64,000 bases of DNA from Thermodesulfobacteriota bacterium. GTDB lineage: Bacteria > Desulfobacterota > Desulfarculia > JACQYL01. The notes beneath the pieces were generated by a model. That model did no database searches. It was not told where the DNA came from and worked only from the letters and a program-made list of their open reading frames with translations. The position numbers and the translations under genes are program-made. Position 1 is the first letter of the stretch, and every line of letters starts with the position of its first letter. Positions 1,342 to 25,647 of the stretch are shown in pieces. The stretch is from assembly GCA_963675595.2 (NCBI GenBank), contig CAXXLZ010000001.1, forward strand, positions 736,001-800,000. Reading direction: 5' to 3'.

Positions 1342-3375
<2,034 letters not shown>

Positions 3376-3453
3376 TTATCCGGCGCTTCTTGGGAGGACT
3401 CGCCGGCCGGGCGATGCATGAAAAGTGACTTGTCGTCCGTTGAAAAAGGCCTG

Positions 3454-5421
3454 TTATCCTCTGAGCTTTCGGATGGCTTCCTTAGCCTCTTTCAGCCGCG
3501 CGTAGGCGTTTGGAAACAGGGTATCGCATTCCGTGTGAGGCAGGAACTGACTGCTGGTGTAATTCTCCATGTAGCCGGGGGCTACGCTGAGTTCGAAGTT
3601 GGTCATTTTGTCCACGAGTTCACCCACTTCGGCCCTCAGACCGTTACACAAGGCCACCAGCCTGGCTCCCAGAAGCGACCCGTTACCCACGAATGTGAAA
3701 CGATCCACCGGAAGGTCCGGCAAGAGCCCGATGAGCACCGCCCTTTCGATGTTGACGGACTGCCCGAAGCCACCCGCCAGGATGACTCGTTCCAGGTCGT
3801 TGACGTTCAGGCCTACGGACTTCATCAGGGTCATATAGGCTGCGTACATAGCCCCTTTGGCACGGATCAGGTTGTCGATGTCCACCTCGGTCAGCGAGAT
3901 GTCGCGCCCGATTTCCGTGTCTTGTGACCACGCCAGGACATATTCGGGTCCATCATCTCCGGATCGGATGCGCTCGCAGGGATGGTCCAGATCGAAGTGC
4001 CCGCTCTCGTCGATAATTCCCGCCATGAGAAAGGCGGCTACGGCGGCTATGAGTCCTGAGCCGCAGATTCCTTTGGGGAGCGCATTTCCCACGGTCACGA
4101 TAGCAGGCTCTCCGGTGACGGGGTTGACCGAGAAGTTTTCAATGGCTCCTTTGGACGCCCGCATGCCGAACTTGATGCCGCCTCCTTCGAAAGCCGGTCC
4201 GGCGCTGGCTGCGGCACAAGCCATCCAATCCTTGGAACCCACCACCACTTCGCCGTTTGTCCCCATGTCGATGAACAAGGTCAATCTTTCATCCCGGTGC
4301 ATCCCCACGCCCAGCACGCCGGCGACCACGTCTCCCCCAACGTAGGACGCTACACTGGGGAACAGAAGCATGGGCGTGTGTTCGGGCAACTCCAAGCCTA
4401 GCTGGACCGCCTTAATGGGAGGGTAATAGGTGGCGGCGGGTACGTAGGGTTCGAGTCGGATATACTTGGTGTCCATGTTCAAGAGCAGGTGAGTCATGGT
4501 GGTGTTGCCGGCCAGTGTTACCAAGTTGACGCATTCCCTGCGGGCGCCGGTGCGCTTGAAAAGCAGGTCCAAGAGCTTGTTGATGGAGGCCGTGGCCGCA
4601 TGCTGCAGGCGTTTGGAACCTTCTTCCTTACCCGCGTAGATGATCCGACTGATCACATCTTCTCCGAAACTGATCTGTCCGTTGAAATCTCCTTCGGTGT
4701 CCAAAATTTCGCCCGAGTTCAGATCCAAGAGTTGAGCCCACACCGTGGTGGTGCCGAGATCCACCGCAACGGCGAGGTTTGTGGCGGCGGTATCCCCCGG
4801 TTCCACTCGCGTCACGGTGTTGCGGCCGGCTTTACGGCCCACCGGGCGCATGATGGTGCTGGTAACGGTCCATTCTCCTTCGCGCCAAGCCTTGGGCAGA
4901 TCGCGGATGGCCTCGAAATCGAAGCCGAAATTGGACTCTCCCGAGAAATGCAGAGAGTCCAGAAGCCTGACGACGTCGCTACGGTTGTCTTCGAGCGTGG
5001 GAGCGGGAGCTTTGCTGACGATCTTCTGCACGGCGGGAGTGAACCGACATTGTTCTTTGAGCTCCCTCCCACCGATGAGTTGGGCTTTTTGCGTGGTTCC
5101 CGAAGCGAGGGCTTTGAGTGCGGTCTTATCCAAAGTCTGTTCCGCGGGTAGACGGACGACAACGTCTTCAACGATTCTCGAGCGGCAGGCCAGTCGAACT
5201 CCGTTTTCTATGTCCTGCGCACTCAACTTCTCCGAAGTCCCTCCTTCGACCTTGCCTTCTTCCAGGATGACCCTGCATTTTCCGCACACGCCTTGGCCGC
5301 CGCAAGAGGCGTTGATATGGACGCCCGCGGCAAGCGCGGTTTCCAGCAAAGTGGCGTTGTGAGGGGCCGAGGCTTCAATCCCGAAGGGTTCGAATCGGAC
5401 GAGATGACTATCGCGTTCCAA
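3454..5421 (-). CDS. ASKHA-domain reductive activator of corrinoid proteins (RACo/AcsV, DUF4445) with N-terminal [2Fe-2S]
   Basis: CGGQGVCGKC...RLAC, VDLGTTT, DMGTNGE, ASAGPAFEG, GICGSG, LAGGFG motifs; TTG start after GGAG. Confidence 0.92.
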   Translation of the reverse strand: MERDSHLVRFEPFGIEASAPHNATLLETALAAGVHINASCGGQGVCGKCRVILEEGKVEGGTSEKLSAQDIENGVRLACRSRIVEDVVVRLPAEQTLDKTALKALASGTTQKAQLIGGRELKEQCRFTPAVQKIVSKAPAPTLEDNRSDVVRLLDSLHFSGESNFGFDFEAIRDLPKAWREGEWTVTSTIMRPVGRKAGRNTVTRVEPGDTAATNLAVAVDLGTTTVWAQLLDLNSGEILDTEGDFNGQISFGEDVISRIIYAGKEEGSKRLQHAATASINKLLDLLFKRTGARRECVNLVTLAGNTTMTHLLLNMDTKYIRLEPYVPAATYYPPIKAVQLGLELPEHTPMLLFPSVASYVGGDVVAGVLGVGMHRDERLTLFIDMGTNGEVVVGSKDWMACAAASAGPAFEGGGIKFGMRASKGAIENFSVNPVTGEPAIVTVGNALPKGICGSGLIAAVAAFLMAGIIDESGHFDLDHPCERIRSGDDGPEYVLAWSQDTEIGRDISLTEVDIDNLIRAKGAMYAAYMTLMKSVGLNVNDLERVILAGGFGQSVNIERAVLIGLLPDLPVDRFTFVGNGSLLGARLVALCNGLRAEVGELVDKMTNFELSVAPGYMENYTSSQFLPHTECDTLFPNAYARLKEAKEAIRKLRG

Positions 5422-5696
5422 GGGTCTTCTCCTGTTATAGGTTTTTCAAGTGAATGCCCTATCATTTCATAGTCGTTGTCTCTTTTCCAGTTCCAAAGGA
5501 CGGTCTGTCCAATTCAACGGCTCTCTGATTCCGCTCTCCGGCGGACTCCGCGGTTCACCGGACCTTCCGAGCGGGAACCTCGGTCGGGGTTCCGATCGGG
5601 TGTTCAGAATCCGGACCTGTGTGGTATACTTGTTGAAGATCAGAGGAGAAATTTCGTTCGTGGCTCAAGGTTTCGGCACGGGGAAAGGGGACGGGC

Positions 5697-7190
5697 ATGT
5701 CCATGTCGGGAAGCGCTTACCAGGAAAATACGGTCTATTCACGAAATCGCCTTTCCGGGCGAGGGCTTGACTGGTCCAACCAGCCGTCGCCGTACAGAGA
5801 ATATCCTTCCGCGATACATGTTCCTTTGCCGACGGAAATTGCCTGGCCCACGGCCTCCACTCGGCAGGTGATGTCCGTTTCTTCTCGCACTGCGAGCCGA
5901 CTCTCCGGCCTTGAAGAGACGGCCATGATCCTTCATCTTTCCGGTGGTCTCACCGCCCGTTCCGGACATTCGGGGGACGTTTTCTATTTTCGGTCTTGTC
6001 CTTCGGCCGGGGCGCTCTATCCGATTGAGGTCTACCTCGCATCAAGGAATCTTTACGGGCTTCCCGACGGCATGTACCATTTCACCGTGAACCGCTTCGC
6101 TCTGGCCGAGTTGCGACGGACGGAGGAGGTGGATTCCGGTCGGAAGGAAGACTCCGCCGGGGGCCCGTCCGAGGACCCATCGGTGCTGTTCCTGCTTTCC
6201 GCCGTGTTTTTCAGAAGTGCCTGGAAATATGGAAAGAGAGCCTATCGTTATTGTCTTTTGGACGCGGGACATTTATTGGAGAATCTGATGTCGGCGTTAA
6301 AGGCGGGCGGCATAAGGGCAGGACTCCATGATTCTTTTCCGGACTTCGCGGCGCAAAGAGCGGCGGGGATAGCGGATCCTCGGAACGAGGGGGTGTTGGC
6401 TGTTGTGGAAGCGGGCGCCTCCGGCCTATATGAGTCCATCATCGGCTCAGCCGAGGCTCCGCCGGACGTCCAAAGCGGGATACCCGAACCCACGCCGTCG
6501 GCGGTGCGCATCGAGACCTTTTCGGAAATTTCCGGTGTTCAGGAAGGGACGAGCGTTGCTCTTTCACCGTCGGCTCCCGAGGAGAGGGAAAATGATCCTT
6601 CAGAGAAGCGGGACTGGATTCCTTTTCCCCAACCCACGGTTCAGGAAACCCCCCCATTTGTGGATGCCGTTCGTGCGCGACGCTCCAAGAGGAACTTCGT
6701 GGTGGGGCGGCTCCGACGAGATACGCTGGGGTTGCTGCTTCACTTGGTTTTTGGCGATGACGAACACGGTCTGTTCGACTCACCCCGTCCGGAAACGGGA
6801 TTGATTGTGGGGAAGGTGGAGGGCGTGGACCCCGGGTATTACGCCCTGGACGCTTCCCGAAAAGGCATGGCGCTTCTGAAGCCCGGTGATTTAACAAGTC
6901 CCATGGCCGAGGCATGTTTGGACCAGATGTGGTTGGCCAATGCCGGTGTTCATTTCGTTTTCCATGCGGACCTGGGGCGGCACGAACAGCTTCATGGGGC
7001 CAGGGCCTATCGCTCCCTGCTCATGAAGGCCGGTCGAATGGGAGAACGAGTCTACCTTGCGGCCGCCGCTCTGGGTTTGGGGGCGTGCGGCATCGGAGCC
7101 TACTATGACGATGAGGCGGGACGTATCCTGGGGCTGAAAGCCGGTGAACGGCTGCTCTATCTCGTGGCCGCGGGAGCCGTCAAGCGATGA
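5697..7190 (+). CDS. SagB/ThcOx-family dehydrogenase (tandem nitroreductase-like domains)
   Basis: RSCPSAGALYPIEVY, WKYGKRAYRYCLLDAGH; second domain RRSKRNF...RAYR...GLGACGIGAYYD. Confidence 0.9.
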   Translation: MSMSGSAYQENTVYSRNRLSGRGLDWSNQPSPYREYPSAIHVPLPTEIAWPTASTRQVMSVSSRTASRLSGLEETAMILHLSGGLTARSGHSGDVFYFRSCPSAGALYPIEVYLASRNLYGLPDGMYHFTVNRFALAELRRTEEVDSGRKEDSAGGPSEDPSVLFLLSAVFFRSAWKYGKRAYRYCLLDAGHLLENLMSALKAGGIRAGLHDSFPDFAAQRAAGIADPRNEGVLAVVEAGASGLYESIIGSAEAPPDVQSGIPEPTPSAVRIETFSEISGVQEGTSVALSPSAPEERENDPSEKRDWIPFPQPTVQETPPFVDAVRARRSKRNFVVGRLRRDTLGLLLHLVFGDDEHGLFDSPRPETGLIVGKVEGVDPGYYALDASRKGMALLKPGDLTSPMAEACLDQMWLANAGVHFVFHADLGRHEQLHGARAYRSLLMKAGRMGERVYLAAAALGLGACGIGAYYDDEAGRILGLKAGERLLYLVAAGAVKR

Positions 7191-18776: not shown

Positions 18777-20501
18777 TCAGACTTTCAGGGCCTCCGAAAG
18801 CCGATCGGAAATCAGCGCCGCAGTCTCACTTACCGGAACGAGTTCCGTATCTCCCGTCTTCCTGAAGCGTACCTCGAGCACCCCGGCCTTCAAATTCTTG
18901 GGGCCGACGGTGACTCGTATGGGCACCCCGGTCAGATCCGCATCCTTGAATTTGACCCCTGGACGTTCGTCCCGGTCGTCCAACAAGGTTTCGATTCCCA
19001 GAGCGGTGAGATCGCGGTAAAGATTCTCGGAGGCCTGCACGACTTCGGTGTCTTTTGGGTGGATCGGCAGCAGGTAAACATGAAAGGGAGCGATGGGAAC
19101 CGGCCAGATGATTCCGCCCTCGTCATGGTTCTGCTCGATGGCGGCGGCGGCGGTACGCCCGACGCCGATTCCGTAACAGCCCATGATCATGAGTTTCTCG
19201 GCGCCGTCGGCATCCAGGAAGACCCCTCCCATGCTTTTTGAATATTTGGTGCCCAATTTGAAAACATGGCCCACCTCGATTCCGCGGTGAAACTGGAGTT
19301 CGCCGCCGCAACGGGGGCACAGGTCCCCTTGTCGGGCGTTCCTCAGGTCCAAATAGCGGGTGACATGGAAATCCCTTTCAGGGTCCGCTCCGGTCCAATG
19401 GAAGTCGGTTTCGTTCGCCCCGACGACACAGTCGGACATCCGGGCCACCGCGGTGTCGGCAATGACGGGTATCTTCAAGCCCACAGGGCCTGCGAATCCC
19501 ACCGGAGCTCCCGTTACGCGCTCAGTGACTTTGGGATCGGCCAACTCCACCTGTGCGGCGTCCAAGGAGTTGCGAATCTTCACTTCGTTGGCGTCGTGAT
19601 CGCCTCGCACCAGCACGGCCACGGGGCTGTCGTCGACCTGATAAATCAGTGTTTTGACCAGACGATCCGGCGTGATGCCGAGGAAGTTGGTGACTTGTTC
19701 CACAGTTTTCATCCCCGGCGTTGAAACCTTTTCCAGTGGCCGGGGCGCAGCTTCCGGGGCTTCCACCGAATCCTCTTCCGTTCCTTGGATTTCGGCCTTT
19801 TCGAGATTGGCGGCATAGTCGCACTGTGAGCAGCTGACCACCACGTCCTCGCCCGTATCCGCCAACACCATGAATTCGTGCGAGAAGCGGCCTCCTATGG
19901 CTCCCGTGTCGGCTTCCACGGCCCGAAAATCAAGGCCGCATCGAGTAAAGATTCTCGAATAGGCCTCCCTCATGGCCTCATAGCTTCTATTCGCCCCTTC
20001 CTGGTCCGCATCGAAGCTGTAAGCGTCCTTCATGATGAATTCACGGCCCCTCATCAGTCCGAAGCGGGGACGGATTTCGTCTCGAAATTTCGTCTGTATC
20101 TGATACAGGTTCACCGGGAGTTGGCGATAGGATCGAATCTCGTCTCTCACCAAAGCGGTGATCACTTCTTCGTGGGTCGGCCCGATACAGAATTCCCTAT
20201 CGTTTCGGTCCGTGAACCTTAGCAGTTCCTTACCGTACTCCTCCCAGCGGCCGCTTTCCTTCCAGAGCTCGGCGGGTTGCACTGCGGGCAGCAACAGCTC
20301 TTGGGCGCCGGCCCGGTTCATCTCTTCCCGGATGATGTTCTCTATTTTGCGAATGACCCTGAGCCCCAAAGGCAAGTAGGAGTATACGCCGGCGGCGACC
20401 CGCCGGATCATGCCCGCCCTGAGCATCAACTGGTGACTGACGACTTCCGCATCGGAAGGGACTTCCCTCAATGTTGGAGCATGTAGCCTGGATAAACGCA
20501 T
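18777..20501 (-). CDS. proS: Proline--tRNA ligase (with INS editing domain)
   Basis: [42 protein letters not shown]. Confidence 0.98.
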
Positions 20502-20634
20502 GATGATTTCCTCTTCGACTTGAAGAATCCGGCGAGACTAATATTCAGCACCGGTGCGGGAGAGTTGCGTATCGGCGAGCGCGCAACCCGACTCAGGAAT
20601 GGAGAAGGCGAATAGTCTTCTTAGTTGTCGGGAA

Positions 20635-21717
20635 TTAAGGGCCCCCGGCATCGATATCCCTGGTCATGGACTCGACTTCGGAAACGAGGGCGTCTACCAG
20701 CTCGGCTTCCCCAATCTTCCGAATCCGTTCCCCCTTCTTGAACAGGATACCGATTCCTTTGCCTCCGGCGACACCCACGTCGGCTTCCCTGGCTTCGCCG
20801 GGACCGTTGACCACGCATCCCATAACCGCAACTTTCAACGGGGATCGGATGTGGGCCAATTTACGTTCCACGTCGTCGACGATGGACAAGAGGTCCACGC
20901 GGCACCGGCCGCAGGTGGGGCAGGAAACCAGTTCGACGCCTCTTTCACGAATACCCAGTGTTCGAAGAATCCCGTAAGCGACCCGCATTTCCTTAATCGG
21001 AGGGGCGGTCAAAGACACCCTGAAGGTGTCGCCGATGCCATCGGCAAGCAGCATTCCGATGCCGATGGAGGACTTGATCGTGCCTTCGGTCATGGAACCG
21101 GCCTCGGTGACCCCTAAATGGAGAGGCGCATCGGTCTTCTCGGAGAGCGCACGGTAGGCGTCCAGGGTGGTCCGAACATCCGATGATTTGATGGATATTT
21201 TGTAATCGGCAAACCCCCAATCTTCGAGCAGGGTCACCTGCCGGAGGGCGCTTTCCACCATTCGGTCCGCCAATGAACGCTCTTTTTGGGCCAGAAGGTC
21301 TTTTTCCAGGGAACCCGAGTTGACTCCGATCCTGACGGCGAGGCCGCGCTCTTTAGCTTTCCGGATGACCTTCTTAAGCCGGTCCGTTCCTCCCAGGTTG
21401 CCCGGATTAATGCGAAGTCCGTCGGCTCCCTGATCTGCGGCCAACAGTGCCAGGCGGTGGTCGAAATGGATGTCGGCGATGAGCGGGGCGGGTATACGCC
21501 GCTTGAGTGCCGGAAGCGCATAAGCCGCCGCCTCGTCGGGGACGGCCACGCGGATGATTTCACACCCGGCCTCAATCAGTTCGTTCGCCTGGGACGCGGT
21601 TGCTTCAACGTCGTCCGTAGGCGTGTTGGTCATGGACTGTACCACGATGGGTGCATCGCCGCCCACCGGGACGTCTCCCACTTGAATCAGACGTGTCTTC
21701 TTCCTGACGATGTTCAT
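20635..21717 (-). CDS. ispG: (E)-4-hydroxy-3-methylbut-2-enyl-diphosphate synthase
   Basis: QSMTNT, ADIHFD, RINPGN, RIGVNSGSL, HLGVTEAG, SCPTCGR, MGCVVNGPGE. Confidence 0.97.
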   Translation of the reverse strand: MNIVRKKTRLIQVGDVPVGGDAPIVVQSMTNTPTDDVEATASQANELIEAGCEIIRVAVPDEAAAYALPALKRRIPAPLIADIHFDHRLALLAADQGADGLRINPGNLGGTDRLKKVIRKAKERGLAVRIGVNSGSLEKDLLAQKERSLADRMVESALRQVTLLEDWGFADYKISIKSSDVRTTLDAYRALSEKTDAPLHLGVTEAGSMTEGTIKSSIGIGMLLADGIGDTFRVSLTAPPIKEMRVAYGILRTLGIRERGVELVSCPTCGRCRVDLLSIVDDVERKLAHIRSPLKVAVMGCVVNGPGEAREADVGVAGGKGIGILFKKGERIRKIGEAELVDALVSEVESMTRDIDAGGP

Positions 21718-21839
21718 AAGTTTCACTATCTTATGGGCATGGAATTTTGTCAATGACAAGGATTCGGTCTTTAGGGCGACCTGGGGCATGAGGGGTTCGG
21801 CGATGCGGCCCGGACCTCGGTTATAACATCGGGTGTTTC

Positions 21840-21904
21840 TTGACCGTGAGGACCCCAATCCTTATTGTACAAAATATTGTTCGGTTCGAGGTGAATACCT
21901 CGAA
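21840..21904 (+). promoter_or_regulatory. sigma70-type promoter plus downstream 8-bp inverted repeat (candidate operator)
   Basis: TTGACC-17 nt-TATTGT at 21840-21868; TTCGAGGT-GAAT-ACCTCGAA at 21885-21904. Confidence 0.5.
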
Positions 21905-21938
21905 GTTTTTCAACTTTTAGTAGGGAGGTAACGCGTCT

Positions 21939-23300
21939 ATGGTTTCCTCATTCAGGAGGACCGGCCTTGCGCTCGTCGCGGTCGGGATTTTTTTCGGGTT
22001 CGGGCTCGGGGCCGTGCCGGCCAAAGCGGAACAGAACCTGCTTCTTAACGCCAAGTGCCTGAAATGCCATACGGAATTCAAGGAAATGAAGAACGTCATG
22101 GCAGGCGATTTCGAGAGCCGATCGAACAAGGCCATGTCGATCCAGGTGGATGTGGGTGAGCAATCCCAACTGGTCAAGTTCACCCCGGAGACCGAAGTGG
22201 TCCATGCGGAAAGCATCAAGGCTCTCAAAAAACCCATTCCTGTTCTGATCGAGTTTGAGCCGCGCGGTGAGGACCTCATAGCCACCAAAATCACGGCGAA
22301 ACCGGTGATCAAGGTTCCGGAAAATGAACAAGTGAGTGTGGAGGAAGTGGCCGCGCTTCCGACGAGATCTCCGAATTCTTACTTGCTGGTGGACTCCAGA
22401 CCGCCCATCCGTTACCAAGAGGGGCACATCCAGTCGGCGATCAGCATTCCTTTCCCAAAAATGCCTGAAATGATGGACAAACTTCCGCAGGACAAAGATC
22501 GGCTCGTGGTATTTTATTGCGGAGGATTCAGGTGAGTGCTTTCTCCCATGGCCGCCAGGTTGGCGGAAAAAAACGGGTACACCAATGTAAAGGTTTTCCA
22601 TGCCGGTATGCCTGCTTGGAGACAAGCGGGAAAGCCGGTCATAACGACTCGGAAATTCGTGAGCGATTTGTTGGGCTACATCGTGCTGATCGACACCAGG
22701 GGCGTTGAGGCCGCAAAGGCCGGGCACATCCAAGGTGCCGTCGCCATAGCGGCGAATGAGATCGTCGGTGAACGGGAACAATTTCCGGTGGATGCAAAAG
22801 CTCAGATCGTCCTTTACGGCGAACAGACCAACCTCGAAGAACTGGCCCCCATTGTGAAGGCGATCAGTAGTTGGGGGTACGGCAACGTATCGATTCTGGA
22901 CGGCGGGTATGAGGGCTGGCTTGCCGCCGACGGACCCATCCAGAAGGACATGGTGAGAACCAAGATCGTCTACTTCCCGCGCCCCCACCCCGGCGAGATC
23001 AGCGGGGACGAGTTTATGAACATTGTACGGAATCAACCCGAAGGCAAACAGATTCTCGATGTCAGAACTCAGGCCGAAACCGCGGGAGGCATGCTTCCGG
23101 GAGCCGTCAACATCCCGGTGGATCAGCTTCAGGCCCGTCTTAACGAGCTTCCCAAGGACAAAGAGATCATCCTCCATTGTCGTTCCGGGCTTCGGGCGGA
23201 AATGGGCTACAATATTCTGAGGAATGCCAAGTTTAAAGCCAGATTTCTGAATGATAAGGTGGAAATCCTGGAAAATCGTATCTTTTGTTGCTTCAAGTAA
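21939..23300 (+). CDS. Exported triple-rhodanese (seleno)protein with CxxCH heme motif; TGA 22533-22535 read as selenocysteine (453 aa)
   Basis: Track ORFs 21939-22535 and 22536-23300 are in frame and joined by one TGA, giving FYCGGFR-U-VLSPMAA at the rhodanese active-loop position; SECIS-like hairpin follows; signal peptide; CLKCH; third domain HCRSGLRA. Confidence 0.85.
22536..22572 (+). promoter_or_regulatory. Putative bacterial SECIS element
   Basis: CCGCCA-GGT-TGGCGG hairpin (22552-22566) with a G-starting apical loop 22 nt after the UGA. Confidence 0.7.
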
Positions 23301-23346
23301 CGGAACATGAGTGACGAGTTCCACGCGTTGGGGATTCGTCGGTCCT

Positions 23347-23383
23347 GCGCAAGGGGAGTCTTTGACTTCCCTTGCGCTTTTTT
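23347..23383 (+). terminator. Intrinsic terminator after the rhodanese gene
   Basis: GCGCAAGGGGAGTC-TTT-GACTTCCCTTGCGC followed by T6. Confidence 0.88.
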
Positions 23384-23614
23384 GGGCACCGAAAAGCAAC
23401 GCCGTCCCGAGGACGGAATCATGTGTTGAAGCGTTTCATTGGATTCAAACCCGGACGACACCCGGTTGACGGGAAAAAAGAATTGATCTAAGGGCGAACA
23501 TAGGGGTACATCAATTGCTCGTATACCGGGAAGGCCCGGACGCGATGCCCGTTTCGGGAATATCCGGTTTCTATGGTGAGATAAGGCGTCTTTCGCAGCG
23601 ATGAGGAGAGCAGC

Positions 23615-24466
23615 ATGTGGGAATATACGGATAAGGTCAGAAAATACTTCGAATCACCCGTGAACGTGGGAGAAATCGAAAATCCGGACGGTGTGGGTGA
23701 GGTGGGCTCCATCGCGTGTGGGGACGCGCTCAAACTCACGTTCAAGTTGGGAGCGGACGGCAGGATCTCCGATGCCAAGTTCAAGACCTTCGGGTGTGCC
23801 AGCGCTATTGCGTCGTCGTCGGCTCTTACGGAAATGATCAAGGGAATGACCCTGGACGAAGCCGAGAAGGTCACCAACAAAGACATTGTGGACTATTTAG
23901 GGGGGCTTCCCAAAGAAAAGATGCATTGCTCGGTCATGGGCATGGAGGCTCTTCAGGCCGCCCTGGCCAATTACCGCGGAGAAGAAGTCAAAAAGGAAGA
24001 AGGGGAAATCGTCTGTAAGTGCTTCGGCATTACGGACCGGGAAATCGAGCGGGTGATCCGTGAGAACCACCTGACCACCAGAGAGGAAGTCACCAACTAC
24101 ACCAAGGCCGGCGGAGGGTGTGAGTCCTGCCACGACAAGATTCAGGAAATCGTGGACAGAGTGGTTGCGGAGGAAAAAGGAAAGAAGATCGAACTCAGAG
24201 CGGTGGAGAAGAAGGCCGGGAAGTTGACCAACCTTCAGAAGATCAAGCTCATCGAAGAAACCCTGGAACGCGAGATTAAACCCGCATTGCGCACCGACGG
24301 CGGGGACATCGAACTTATCGACGTCCAGGGGGACCGGGTTTTGGTGGCTCTTCGCGGCACTTGTTCATCTTGTGCTGCGGCCGAGGTGACCCTGAAGGGG
24401 TACGTCGAGTCCAAGCTGCGGGAGTTCGTAACCGATGAGCTGGTGGTCGAGGAGGTGAAGTCATGA
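23615..24466 (+). CDS. nifU: Fe-S cluster assembly protein NifU
   Basis: MWEYTDKV, GSIACGDAL, FGCASAIASS, KMHCSVMG, CKCF...GGCESC, Nfu domain DGGDIEL..GTCSSC. Confidence 0.97.
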   Translation: MWEYTDKVRKYFESPVNVGEIENPDGVGEVGSIACGDALKLTFKLGADGRISDAKFKTFGCASAIASSSALTEMIKGMTLDEAEKVTNKDIVDYLGGLPKEKMHCSVMGMEALQAALANYRGEEVKKEEGEIVCKCFGITDREIERVIRENHLTTREEVTNYTKAGGGCESCHDKIQEIVDRVVAEEKGKKIELRAVEKKAGKLTNLQKIKLIEETLEREIKPALRTDGGDIELIDVQGDRVLVALRGTCSSCAAAEVTLKGYVESKLREFVTDELVVEEVKS

Positions 24467-25647
24467 ACCCGGTCTACATGGACAACAATGCCACGACCAG
24501 GACGGCTCCGGAAGTGGTCGAGACCATGCTTCCATACTTCACGGAGCTGTACGGGAATCCCTCGAGTATGCATTACTTCGGCGGACAGGTGGAAAAGGCC
24601 GTGAGAGGGGCGAGGGAAAAGATTGCGGCCTTGATCGGCGCCGACCCGGGTGAAATCGTGTTCACATCCTGCGGCACCGAAAGCGACAATACGGCCGTCT
24701 TGGGGACGTTGGAGTCCTATCCTGAAAAGCGGCACGTGGTCACCACTCGCGTTGAACACCCGGCGGTCAGGAACGTGGGGCATCATCTCCAGAAAAAAGG
24801 ATATCAGGTCACTGAATTGTCCGTGGATCGCGGGGGGGCGTTGGACCTCCGCCGGCTGGAGCAGGCAGTGACCTCGGACACCGCGGTTGTCAGCATCATG
24901 TGGGCCAACAATGAGACGGGCGTGGTTTTTCCCATCGAGGAAGCCGCGGCCATTGCCAAGTCCAAGGGTGCGGTCTTCCATACGGACGCGGTGCAGGCCG
25001 TGGGAAAGATCCCCATCGACCTCTCAAAATTGAGGGACGTGGACCTGTTGTCCCTTTCGGGCCACAAGCTGCACGCGCCCAAAGGGATCGGCGTGTTGTA
25101 CGTGCGCAAAGGAACCCGTTTGTCACCCTATATCATCGGTGGACACCAGGAAGGGGGACGCAGGGGCGGCACTGAAAACGTGCCTTACATCATCGGCTTG
25201 GGGAAGGCGGCGGAGCTGGCCGGGACGAGAATGGATGATGAGAATACGCGTGTGCGAGCCCTCCGGGACAAACTGGAAAAGGGCCTCATGGAGCGGATTC
25301 CCAACTCGATTCTCAATGGAGAAGGACAGGTCCGGCTTCCCAACACCTCCAACGTCAGCTTTGAATATGTGGAAGGTGAATCGATCCTGCTGCTCATGAG
25401 CAATCTGGGAATCTGTGCCTCATCGGGTTCGGCTTGCACGTCCGGCTCGCTGGAGCCCTCTCATGTTCTCAGAGCCATGGGGGTTCCTTTCACGGCCGCC
25501 CACGGCTCCATCCGGTTCTCTTTGAGCTATTACAACACGGAAGACGAAGTAGACTACGTCCTCGATCATCTTCCGGGAATCATTGAGAAGTTGCGGGACA
25601 TTTCTCCCTTCTGGTCGGACTACGTTCGGCAAAGCGTTGCCCGGTAG
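24463..25647 (+). CDS. nifS: Cysteine desulfurase NifS
   Basis: YMDNNATT, GNPSSMH, HTDAVQAVGK, SGHKLHAPKG, SSGSACTS. Confidence 0.97.
   Translation: MNPVYMDNNATTRTAPEVVETMLPYFTELYGNPSSMHYFGGQVEKAVRGAREKIAALIGADPGEIVFTSCGTESDNTAVLGTLESYPEKRHVVTTRVEHPAVRNVGHHLQKKGYQVTELSVDRGGALDLRRLEQAVTSDTAVVSIMWANNETGVVFPIEEAAAIAKSKGAVFHTDAVQAVGKIPIDLSKLRDVDLLSLSGHKLHAPKGIGVLYVRKGTRLSPYIIGGHQEGGRRGGTENVPYIIGLGKAAELAGTRMDDENTRVRALRDKLEKGLMERIPNSILNGEGQVRLPNTSNVSFEYVEGESILLLMSNLGICASSGSACTSGSLEPSHVLRAMGVPFTAAHGSIRFSLSYYNTEDEVDYVLDHLPGIIEKLRDISPFWSDYVRQSVAR

Follow-up and report, generated by a model that had tools for sequence, protein, structure and literature searches.

Does a TGA in the active-site loop of a predicted rhodanese end the gene, or is it read as selenocysteine (Sec), and what would the resulting protein do? 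The question is raised by a locus in a 64,000-nucleotide (nt) stretch of the genome of a Thermodesulfobacteriota bacterium (contig CAXXLZ010000001.1), here called the window. Positions 21939-23300, on the plus strand, make up a single frame of 453 codons followed by TAA, interrupted only by one TGA at codon 199 (22533-22535), within the peptide FYC194GGFR-U199-VLSPMAARLA. Under translation table 11 the outcome is an open reading frame (ORF) of 198 amino acids (aa; 21939-22535) and a second one of 254 aa (22536-23300), whose GTG start directly abuts the TGA. An earlier note on this DNA had taken the two ORFs for one frame broken by a single TGA, and a recheck of the sequence agrees. We read the locus as the gene of an exported, one-heme, triple-rhodanese selenoprotein, in which C194 and U199 form a redox couple acting in sulfur chemistry, and give this reading, taken as a whole, a probability of about 0.6. 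Recoding of the UGA, the selenocysteine insertion sequence (SECIS) and the three-domain layout with its C/U loop are the parts supported by computation.

Recoding of the UGA codon

Comparison was based on 80 related loci, fetched from species-representative genomes. Codon 199 is TGA in 45 of them, each containing exactly one in-frame TGA within the match, and TGT or TGC in the other 35; the TGA is kept in 45 genomes from at least three phyla, and Cys codons are its sole replacement. Sec forms occur in Desulfarculaceae (including Desulfocarbo indianensis), Desulfobacterales, Desulfatiglandaceae, Thermodesulfovibrio-type Nitrospirota and SAR324, and Cys forms in Desulfohalobiaceae, Geobacter-type and other lineages; the lineages carrying the triple-rhodanese family are sulfate reducers and sulfur-cycling groups. 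Geobacter-type relatives were considered as Sec forms and rejected, since their sole in-frame TGA is the terminal stop and they are Cys forms with a C-x3-C motif. A near-length protein search, of which the best 120 matches were listed, returned 14 full-length homologs (444-608 residues); 13 of these were aligned, P0022 being left out, and position 199 is Cys in 12. Cys or TGA at this position of homologs is what the earlier note had proposed to look for, and both were found, in the proteins and in the loci. Such an alignment of Cys with UGA is the pattern expected of a bacterial selenoprotein gene, and the fact that 45 of 80 loci repeat the TGA at this codon, with TGY in the rest, confirms, at the level of sequence comparison, that more than chance is involved.

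A tree was built from 55 sequences, the window gene and 54 of the 58 full-length loci; L040, L060, L073 and L091 were omitted because of doubtful ends or a missing motif. On this tree, 5 switches between Sec and Cys are required, of which well-supported branches make at least 4 unavoidable, and Cys forms are nested within Sec clades. Homologs are colinear with the window gene across its whole length, sequence conservation continues across the TGA junction, and all 55 sequences share C194, G196 and a Cys or Sec at position 199.

The codon is followed, after 16 nt, by a SECIS-like hairpin, CCGCCA-GGU-UGGCGG (22552-22566, plus strand), whose loop lies 22 nt after the UGA, at the position that the earlier note had given. 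It was evaluated in an alignment of 46 sequences, running from the TGA to +66 and containing 44 distinct rows, in which RNAalifold predicted a single helix of 6 base pairs (bp; columns 20-25 with 29-34), 98.5% paired across the 44 distinct sequences. Three of the six pairs are invariant, and three show double changes, from CG to UA at two pairs (15 and 5 cells) and from AU to CG at one (8 cells), while the first base of the loop is an invariant G. None of 500 shuffles equalled the observed covariation score or percentage of pairing; sliding the 3' arm by 1-3 columns lowers the pairing to 17-68%, and two outer pairs, when added to the helix, are mostly unpaired (29.5%). Some of the compensatory changes fall at third positions in two Ala codons and are synonymous, so that protein conservation alone would not couple them. 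At this place an equivalent hairpin is absent from most of the 35 Cys loci, although several fold a weaker one. A stem-loop soon after the UGA, with a G in the apical loop, is the form of a bacterial SECIS element, and here its 6-bp helix is conserved with three covarying pairs.

The genome (6.79 Mb in 3 contigs, 98% complete) contains selA, selB and selD, all over curated cut-offs, and a tRNA-Sec with anticodon tca, the machinery required by a selenoprotein gene; a search for these genes had been among the checks suggested earlier. Hairpins at similar distances also follow the selD TGA, the second of two TGAs in a TsoB-like gene and the single TGA in each of two other rhodanese genes, with a GGU-containing loop in the three rhodanese genes and the loop GUGAU in selD. 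A C/U-x4-U loop is found in at least four genes of this genome, and is therefore a recurring Sec site.

These other genes can be briefly described. The selD locus (L010, G000:C2:3334045-3337962) has an in-frame TGA (AAG-U-ASK) followed by a hairpin of 7 bp, so that SelD is itself a selenoprotein here. The TsoB-like gene (L100, G000:C2:2110761-2114066, minus strand) features FYU-x4-U, with two in-frame TGAs, a DsbD-like membrane region and a thioredoxin-like domain. Two exported rhodaneses, L102 (G000:C1:1449046-1452294, minus strand; YCLGPK-U) and L103 (G000:C2:2378128-2381421, plus strand; YCRSFR-U), have one in-frame TGA each at the same loop position and, about 18 nt 3' of it, a GC-rich hairpin whose loop contains GGU; a Cys-form paralog lies just upstream of the L103 gene.

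Independent sequences are available as well. The whole gene is covered by contigs from two other studies, which show 34 and 49 differences from it; among the differences listed none falls at 22533-22535. A 202-nt metatranscriptome contig, with 2 differences, spans the TGA; as such libraries may be contaminated by DNA, it is weak evidence of transcription. Runs X1 and X3 also yielded separate 50-nt contigs confined to 22527-22576, the stretch holding the UGA and the hairpin, at higher depth and with 4 differences; they may stem from the ortholog of a second organism or from a conserved paralogous piece. Runs X7-X16, having less than a fifth of the sampled words, were left out of habitat statements, although X11 was aligned with the gene.

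Public records reflect the standard reading of the codon. Among the 120 best near-length matches, 106 are proteins of 250-258 residues covering only the part after the TGA, and many N-terminal pieces of about 195-203 residues are found among shorter proteins; some of the pieces are partners encoded on one contig under neighbouring locus tags, and the names given are 'hypothetical' or 'rhodanese-like'. These adjacent pairs indicate that public annotation does split the gene, as the earlier note had anticipated. Taken together, the comparisons leave little doubt that the UGA199 locus is a real selenoprotein gene.

Export signal, heme motif and rhodanese domains

By inspection, residues 1-30 (21939-22028) look like a Sec-type signal peptide, with RR, a hydrophobic stretch and AKA followed by E31. 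The N-terminus is hydrophobic in all homologs, the twin-arginine is not conserved, and the predicted local distance difference test score (pLDDT) of the structural model is low over this region; the protein is very probably exported. The heme-c attachment motif CLKCH (C40, C43, H44; 22056-22070) comes next, an order of signal peptide and motif that had been described before and stands. C40, C43 and H44 are invariant in all 55 aligned full-length sequences. In the 60 loci reaching the motif region, 51 have C-x2-CH, 7 of Thermodesulfovibrio type have C-x4-CH and 2 of Leptospirales/Spirochaete type have lost the motif, so that C..CH or C....CH is kept in 58; the conservation which had been proposed as a check is thus borne out. 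Heme c motifs tolerate C-x4-CH variation, and maturation systems attach heme to exported CxxCH motifs. Heme-c maturation genes had likewise been proposed for a search: the genome contains ResB, of the System II pathway of cytochrome c maturation, and no CcmE was found in it. On these grounds the window protein probably binds heme c.

The motif is followed by a small beta-barrel domain, CusF/DUF5666-like, at residues ~45-125 (22071-22313). Residues 31-133, modelled alone with AlphaFold2 (AF2; pLDDT 93), fold into two short helices, which bear the motif, and then a five- to six-stranded barrel. Its best matches in the PDB are CusF (E 1.9e-4, template modelling score 0.71 on target) and other oligonucleotide/oligosaccharide-binding (OB) folds. 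A profile of the domain, searched against 1.84 billion representative proteins, gave 214 matches, mostly from the same triple-rhodanese family; the barrel is also found as 3-12 tandem repeats in DUF5666/CusF_Ec proteins, without the Cys/His motif. The only invariant residues of the domain are C40, C43, H44, G56 and S62.

The remainder of the chain consists of three rhodanese stretches, recognized by Pfam (PF00581) with 141 bits against a cut-off of 22.2. Domain 1 spans residues ~132-238 (22332-22652), the best Pfam stretch being 147-229, while TsoB and other NCBIfam models align over 132-238; it contains the active-site loop C194-G-G-F-R-U199 (22518-22535). Domain 2 (residues ~240-335, 22656-22943) has LYGEQTN and no catalytic Cys, the position being occupied by G, S, A, D or T in most homologs. 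Domain 3 (residues ~350-440, 22986-23258) has the canonical CRxGxR loop, as HC414RSGLRA, in which C414, G417, R419 and A420 are invariant throughout the 55-sequence alignment. Vicinal cysteines, C450-C451 (IFCCFK, 23286-23291), lie close to the C-terminus: all close homologs terminate in FCC[FY]K, other clades either in ...EEGC or without a Cys, and pLDDT falls there. The motifs YGEQTN, HCRSGLRA and IFCCFK, previously pointed out in domain 2, domain 3 and the C-terminus, were all found again. The full AF2 model has a pLDDT of 88.7 and matches multi-rhodanese structures, among them 1yt8, EanB and the triple-rhodanese YnjE.

In five Cys forms of Desulfohalobiaceae/Desulfovibrionaceae type (L016, L021, L024, L047 and L056) an extra C-terminal part of ~110 codons, ending in ...EEGC, replaces FCC[FY]K; in a related protein, P0277, this extension has a weak TPR match.

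Neighbouring genes and known systems

Flanking ORFs of the 80 loci were clustered by BLAST, and one or two representatives of each cluster were scanned. A PAS/sigma-54 activator lies near 25 loci, mostly upstream and divergent. In 7 loci a YeeE/YedE-type Sulf_transp gene is found next door, downstream in six and upstream on the opposite strand in one. The 7 Thermodesulfovibrio-type loci feature a 632-aa multiheme cytochrome ~85-390 nt downstream (within ~90 nt in six) and a small rhodanese upstream. Ten distant relatives (L076, L077, L079-L084, L092 and L093, at ~3000-5700 in each) are lipoproteins with three rhodanese domains and Cys at position 199, but no CxxCH domain; each is followed by a gene of one and the same cluster, at ~110-760 nt (less than 200 nt in nine, ~760 nt in L081). 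The two representatives of that cluster that were scanned are octaheme cytochromes of the tetrathionate-reductase family (TIGR04315, 527 and 519 bits, cut-off 375). Rhodanese and c-type cytochrome are thus associated either through fusion, as in the window protein, or through adjacency, as in its relatives. Going by gene order, the neighbours of the relatives point to a putative role in periplasmic sulfur redox chemistry.

A -24/-12 promoter, TGGYA-N7-TGC, occurs within 300 nt upstream in 16 of 54 loci, against ~0.01 expected per 300 nt. These sigma-54 sites are located 48-217 nt before the gene (L019, L025-L031, L034, L036, L037, L039, L040, L045, L049 and L051), often together with a divergent PAS/AAA+/HTH_8 activator. 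In the window no such promoter was found within 300 nt upstream, and no divergent activator gene either.

The window gene has a sigma-70-like candidate promoter, TTGACC-17 nt-TATTGT (21840-21868, plus strand), which agrees with the consensus at 9 of 12 positions in a consensus scan; 2 such sites were seen, against 1.0 +/- 1.0 in shuffles, so that the site is weak evidence alone. The putative 5' leader, between it and the ribosome-binding site, contains a terminator-like hairpin of 8 bp with GTTTTTC after it (21885-21904), which may be a leader or attenuator element. The ribosome-binding site, GGGAGG (21923-21928), was read from the sequence 10 nt 5' of the ATG of the coding sequence (21939-23300, with UGA199 as Sec). 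An intrinsic terminator closes the unit (23347-23383): a 14-bp stem with 9 GC pairs and a loop of 3 nt (the hairpin itself, 23347-23377), followed by TTTTTT. The claim of an own promoter and terminator thus stands firmly for the terminator, while the promoter site, although present, is weak by itself.

The gene is flanked by proS and ispG (minus strand, 18777-21858) and by nifU-nifS (plus strand, 23615-25647), named by eye from their ORF translations. Among the 80 loci, proS/ispG are common only to L020 and nifU/nifS only to L086, a Desulfuromonadales locus in which the pair is found upstream of the homolog, possibly by coincidence. A functional link to nifUS was considered and dropped, since each pair of neighbours is shared with one locus only.

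Rhodaneses containing Sec are already known, as the earlier note had stated, and Sec at this loop position is among the cases catalogued. A 2026 review of the prokaryotic selenoproteome (PMC13188914) gives five rhodanese forms, with the motifs UxxS, UxxG, CxU, UxxG and UxxxxU. The last, 'rhodanese form 5', is described there as TsoB, a rhodanese/DsbD fusion-like selenoprotein (NCBIfam NF045694; PMC13188914). TsoB is the second-best NCBIfam match of rhodanese domain 1 of the window protein and the best selenoprotein model (residues 132-238 against model positions 46-160, E 1.4e-22), and the Sec at +5 of the rhodanese loop corresponds to its second Sec. However, the score of 79.6 bits is far under the cut-off of 805, the loop is CxxxxU, with Cys at the first position where TsoB has Sec, and in place of the DsbD-like membrane and thioredoxin domains the window protein has the CxxCH/beta-barrel part and two more rhodanese domains. 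The model rhodanese_LYCAU (NF041203, 'form 3', CxU) is likewise not reached, with 68.3 bits against a cut-off of 115 and a motif of C-x4-U. 'Form 1' (UxxS; WP_010941598.1), compared by motif only, shares a single Sec, and U199-V-L-S202 fits UxxS; the accessible tables of the review, however, mention no heme motif or triple-domain form under it, and the Geobacter-type relatives fetched here are Cys forms with C-x3-C.

In overall shape the protein resembles E. coli YnjE (PDB 3ipo and 2wlr), which has three rhodanese domains and a similar chain length, with Foldseek E values of 4.7e-10 to 1.9e-9 over ~405-410 columns. Identity to the window protein is 15%. YnjE is periplasmic, and is not known to have Sec, a CxxCH N-domain or a C-terminal CC.

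Two further systems resemble the window protein in working principle or gene content. MccSep/ExtKL of Geobacter is described as a pentaheme selenoprotein polysulfide reductase using heme, Cys and Sec together (PMC13510729), which indicates that such chemistry exists. It shares with the window protein export, the combination of heme c, Cys and Sec for sulfur redox, and a UGA with a downstream stem-loop, but its fold is unrelated, it has five hemes and no rhodanese domain, so that the resemblance is one of working principle only; the NCBIfam ExtKL models had no match in the window protein. A rhodanese gene beside an octaheme tetrathionate reductase (OTR) gene, and rhodanese/octaheme clusters in Dethiobacter, have been described (PMC10376724). 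The distant triple-rhodanese relatives, directly upstream of TIGR04315 octaheme cytochromes, display a similar arrangement, as two genes and not one; in contrast to these Cys-form lipoproteins without CxxCH, the window protein is fused to the heme motif and has no adjacent cytochrome gene.

For a CxxCH-bearing triple-rhodanese selenoprotein, no NCBIfam model and, in a full-text literature search, no description was found, which agrees with the earlier note in not recognizing the combination as characterized; no mention of rhodanese was found in deep-Sep. What is novel is the architecture, a heme motif, a beta-barrel and three rhodanese domains, and not the principle of a Sec-rhodanese.

Proposed function and alternatives

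The preferred reading can be spelled out as a series of steps. As the computation supports, the conserved hairpin 16 nt past UGA199 serves as the SECIS element for SelB. The preprotein would leave through the Sec translocon and be cleaved after A30, and System II (ResB/CcsBA) would attach heme c to C40 and C43, with H44 as the proximal ligand, placing the heme on a short arm that would pack against the CusF-like barrel. C414 of domain 3 would take periplasmic sulfane sulfur from thiosulfate, polysulfide or tetrathionate, possibly aided by the flexible C-terminal Cys-Cys arm. The pair C194/U199 would act as a selenylsulfide redox couple, making or breaking S-S(e) bonds. Single electrons would travel by way of the heme between the couple and the pool of periplasmic cytochromes, which would make the protein a self-contained version of the neighbouring pairs of rhodanese and c-type cytochrome seen in relatives.

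Several observations weigh against this reading, or against parts of it. One of the 13 aligned full-length homologs, P0005, has Ser at position 199. The single-sequence fold of 76 nt is unremarkable (z-score -0.20), and the significance of the hairpin therefore comes from comparison and not from that fold; an Rfam scan of 21500-23800, with E up to 10, returned no SECIS family but only a chance match to a flavivirus xrRNA; and the hairpin overlaps conserved Ala and Arg codons, to which part of its conservation is due. As 44 differences of the other strains lie outside those listed, the identity of the TGA in them is not strictly proven. On the side of the heme, the barrel after CxxCH is CusF/OB-like and does not correspond to any known cytochrome c fold, Pfam assigns the protein to no cytochrome family, cytochrome c among PDB sequences was reached by the N-domain profile only at non-significant E values of 0.14-1 (mitochondrial 0.14), and no conserved Met or second His that could be the distal ligand was found in the N-domain. 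The neighbours of the gene in the window are not conserved and uninformative on function, and one can only guess at the substrate, at the direction in which electrons flow and at what the CC tail does. The earlier description as a cytochrome c-rhodanese is accordingly retained in part: the exported, conserved CxxCH and the System II gene are those of a c-type cytochrome, whereas fold and distal ligand are not, and we therefore infer 'cytochrome c' from the motif, the export signal and the maturation system.

The alternatives differ widely in how well they fare. It is hardly credible that UGA199 is a genuine stop, be it between two genes of 198 and 254 aa, in a pseudogene or through an assembly error: the break would lie inside the active-site loop of rhodanese domain 1, leaving neither product with a whole domain, at a codon that is TGA in 45 genomes of at least three phyla and only Cys in the other 35 loci, and conservation across the junction, the covarying hairpin, the independent assemblies carrying the same gene and the full Sec machinery of the genome are all at odds with it. 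What speaks for a stop is the output of table 11, with a GTG directly after the TGA, the very many public records in which two genes are called and a hairpin that, taken alone, is thermodynamically unexceptional. A better case, although still an unlikely one, can be made for a selenoprotein in which CxxCH is a redox dithiol or a metal site (Cu, Zn or Fe) on the CusF-like barrel, relaying reductant or metal to C194/U199, as the DsbD-like module may do, by analogy, in TsoB. The kinship of the N-domain with CusF/OB folds and DUF5666/CusF_Ec repeats, the lack of a cytochrome Pfam match and of a conserved distal ligand, and TsoB, a rhodanese/DsbD fusion called the closest NCBIfam rhodanese model and represented by a TsoB-like gene in this genome, are compatible with this view. 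Yet all 55 sequences have a His immediately behind the second Cys, the clade with C-x4-CH keeps the 'CH' pair, as heme c motifs do, and the protein is exported in a genome with ResB; moreover, the DUF5666/CusF repeats lack the Cys/His motif, and the ligands of CusF itself are not conserved here. The metal ligands of CusF are Met, His and Trp.

Given a selenoprotein that is exported and carries heme, a role in sulfur rather than selenium redox or transfer appears likely. An improbable alternative is that the selenoprotein has a selenium substrate, capturing or reducing selenite or selenotrisulfide in the periplasm and handing the selenium to a YedE-type importer. The transporter found beside 7 loci does match best the selenium-metabolism YedE/FdhT model, albeit under its cut-off (154 against 350 bits), but it also matches thiosulfate transporter TsuA models, likewise under cut-offs. 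The 632-aa cytochrome has weak best NCBIfam matches, far under cut-offs, to ExtN/ExtO of a selenite/tellurite reduction operon, and ExtH, a rhodanese-like lipoprotein of Geobacter, is reportedly linked to selenite uptake, going by the title of a work that the MccSep paper cites; against these stand the octaheme cytochrome of the tetrathionate-reductase family, the best-defined neighbour in distant relatives, and the presence of the family in sulfate reducers and sulfur-cycling lineages. The sequence itself makes no distinction between S and Se as substrate. A more specific version of the heme-coupled reading is doubtful. In it, the protein would be a minimal periplasmic sulfur oxidoreductase with one heme and one Sec, whose heme iron would be ligated by, or lie beside, C194/U199. 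The rhodanese domain would have changed from a sulfur carrier to a redox catalyst that is coupled to heme and acts on polysulfide, tetrathionate or thiosulfate, which would make the protein a convergent single-chain counterpart of MccSep, TsdA or SoxAX; a ligand from the rhodanese loop would explain why the N-domain has no conserved distal one.

For the exported heme-bearing triple-rhodanese selenoprotein that we favour, the analysis has consequences beyond the window. A widespread gene, found in sulfate reducers, Thermodesulfovibrio-type Nitrospirota and SAR324, is systematically mis-called in public records, and its product adds a distinct architecture to the Sec-rhodaneses already catalogued. 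The fusion, together with the rhodanese/octaheme gene pairs, suggests that, in periplasmic sulfur redox enzymes that depend on heme, rhodanese domains may supply or constitute the catalytic site, and the idea of heme-coupled rhodanese catalysis has become testable with the 2026 work on MccSep.

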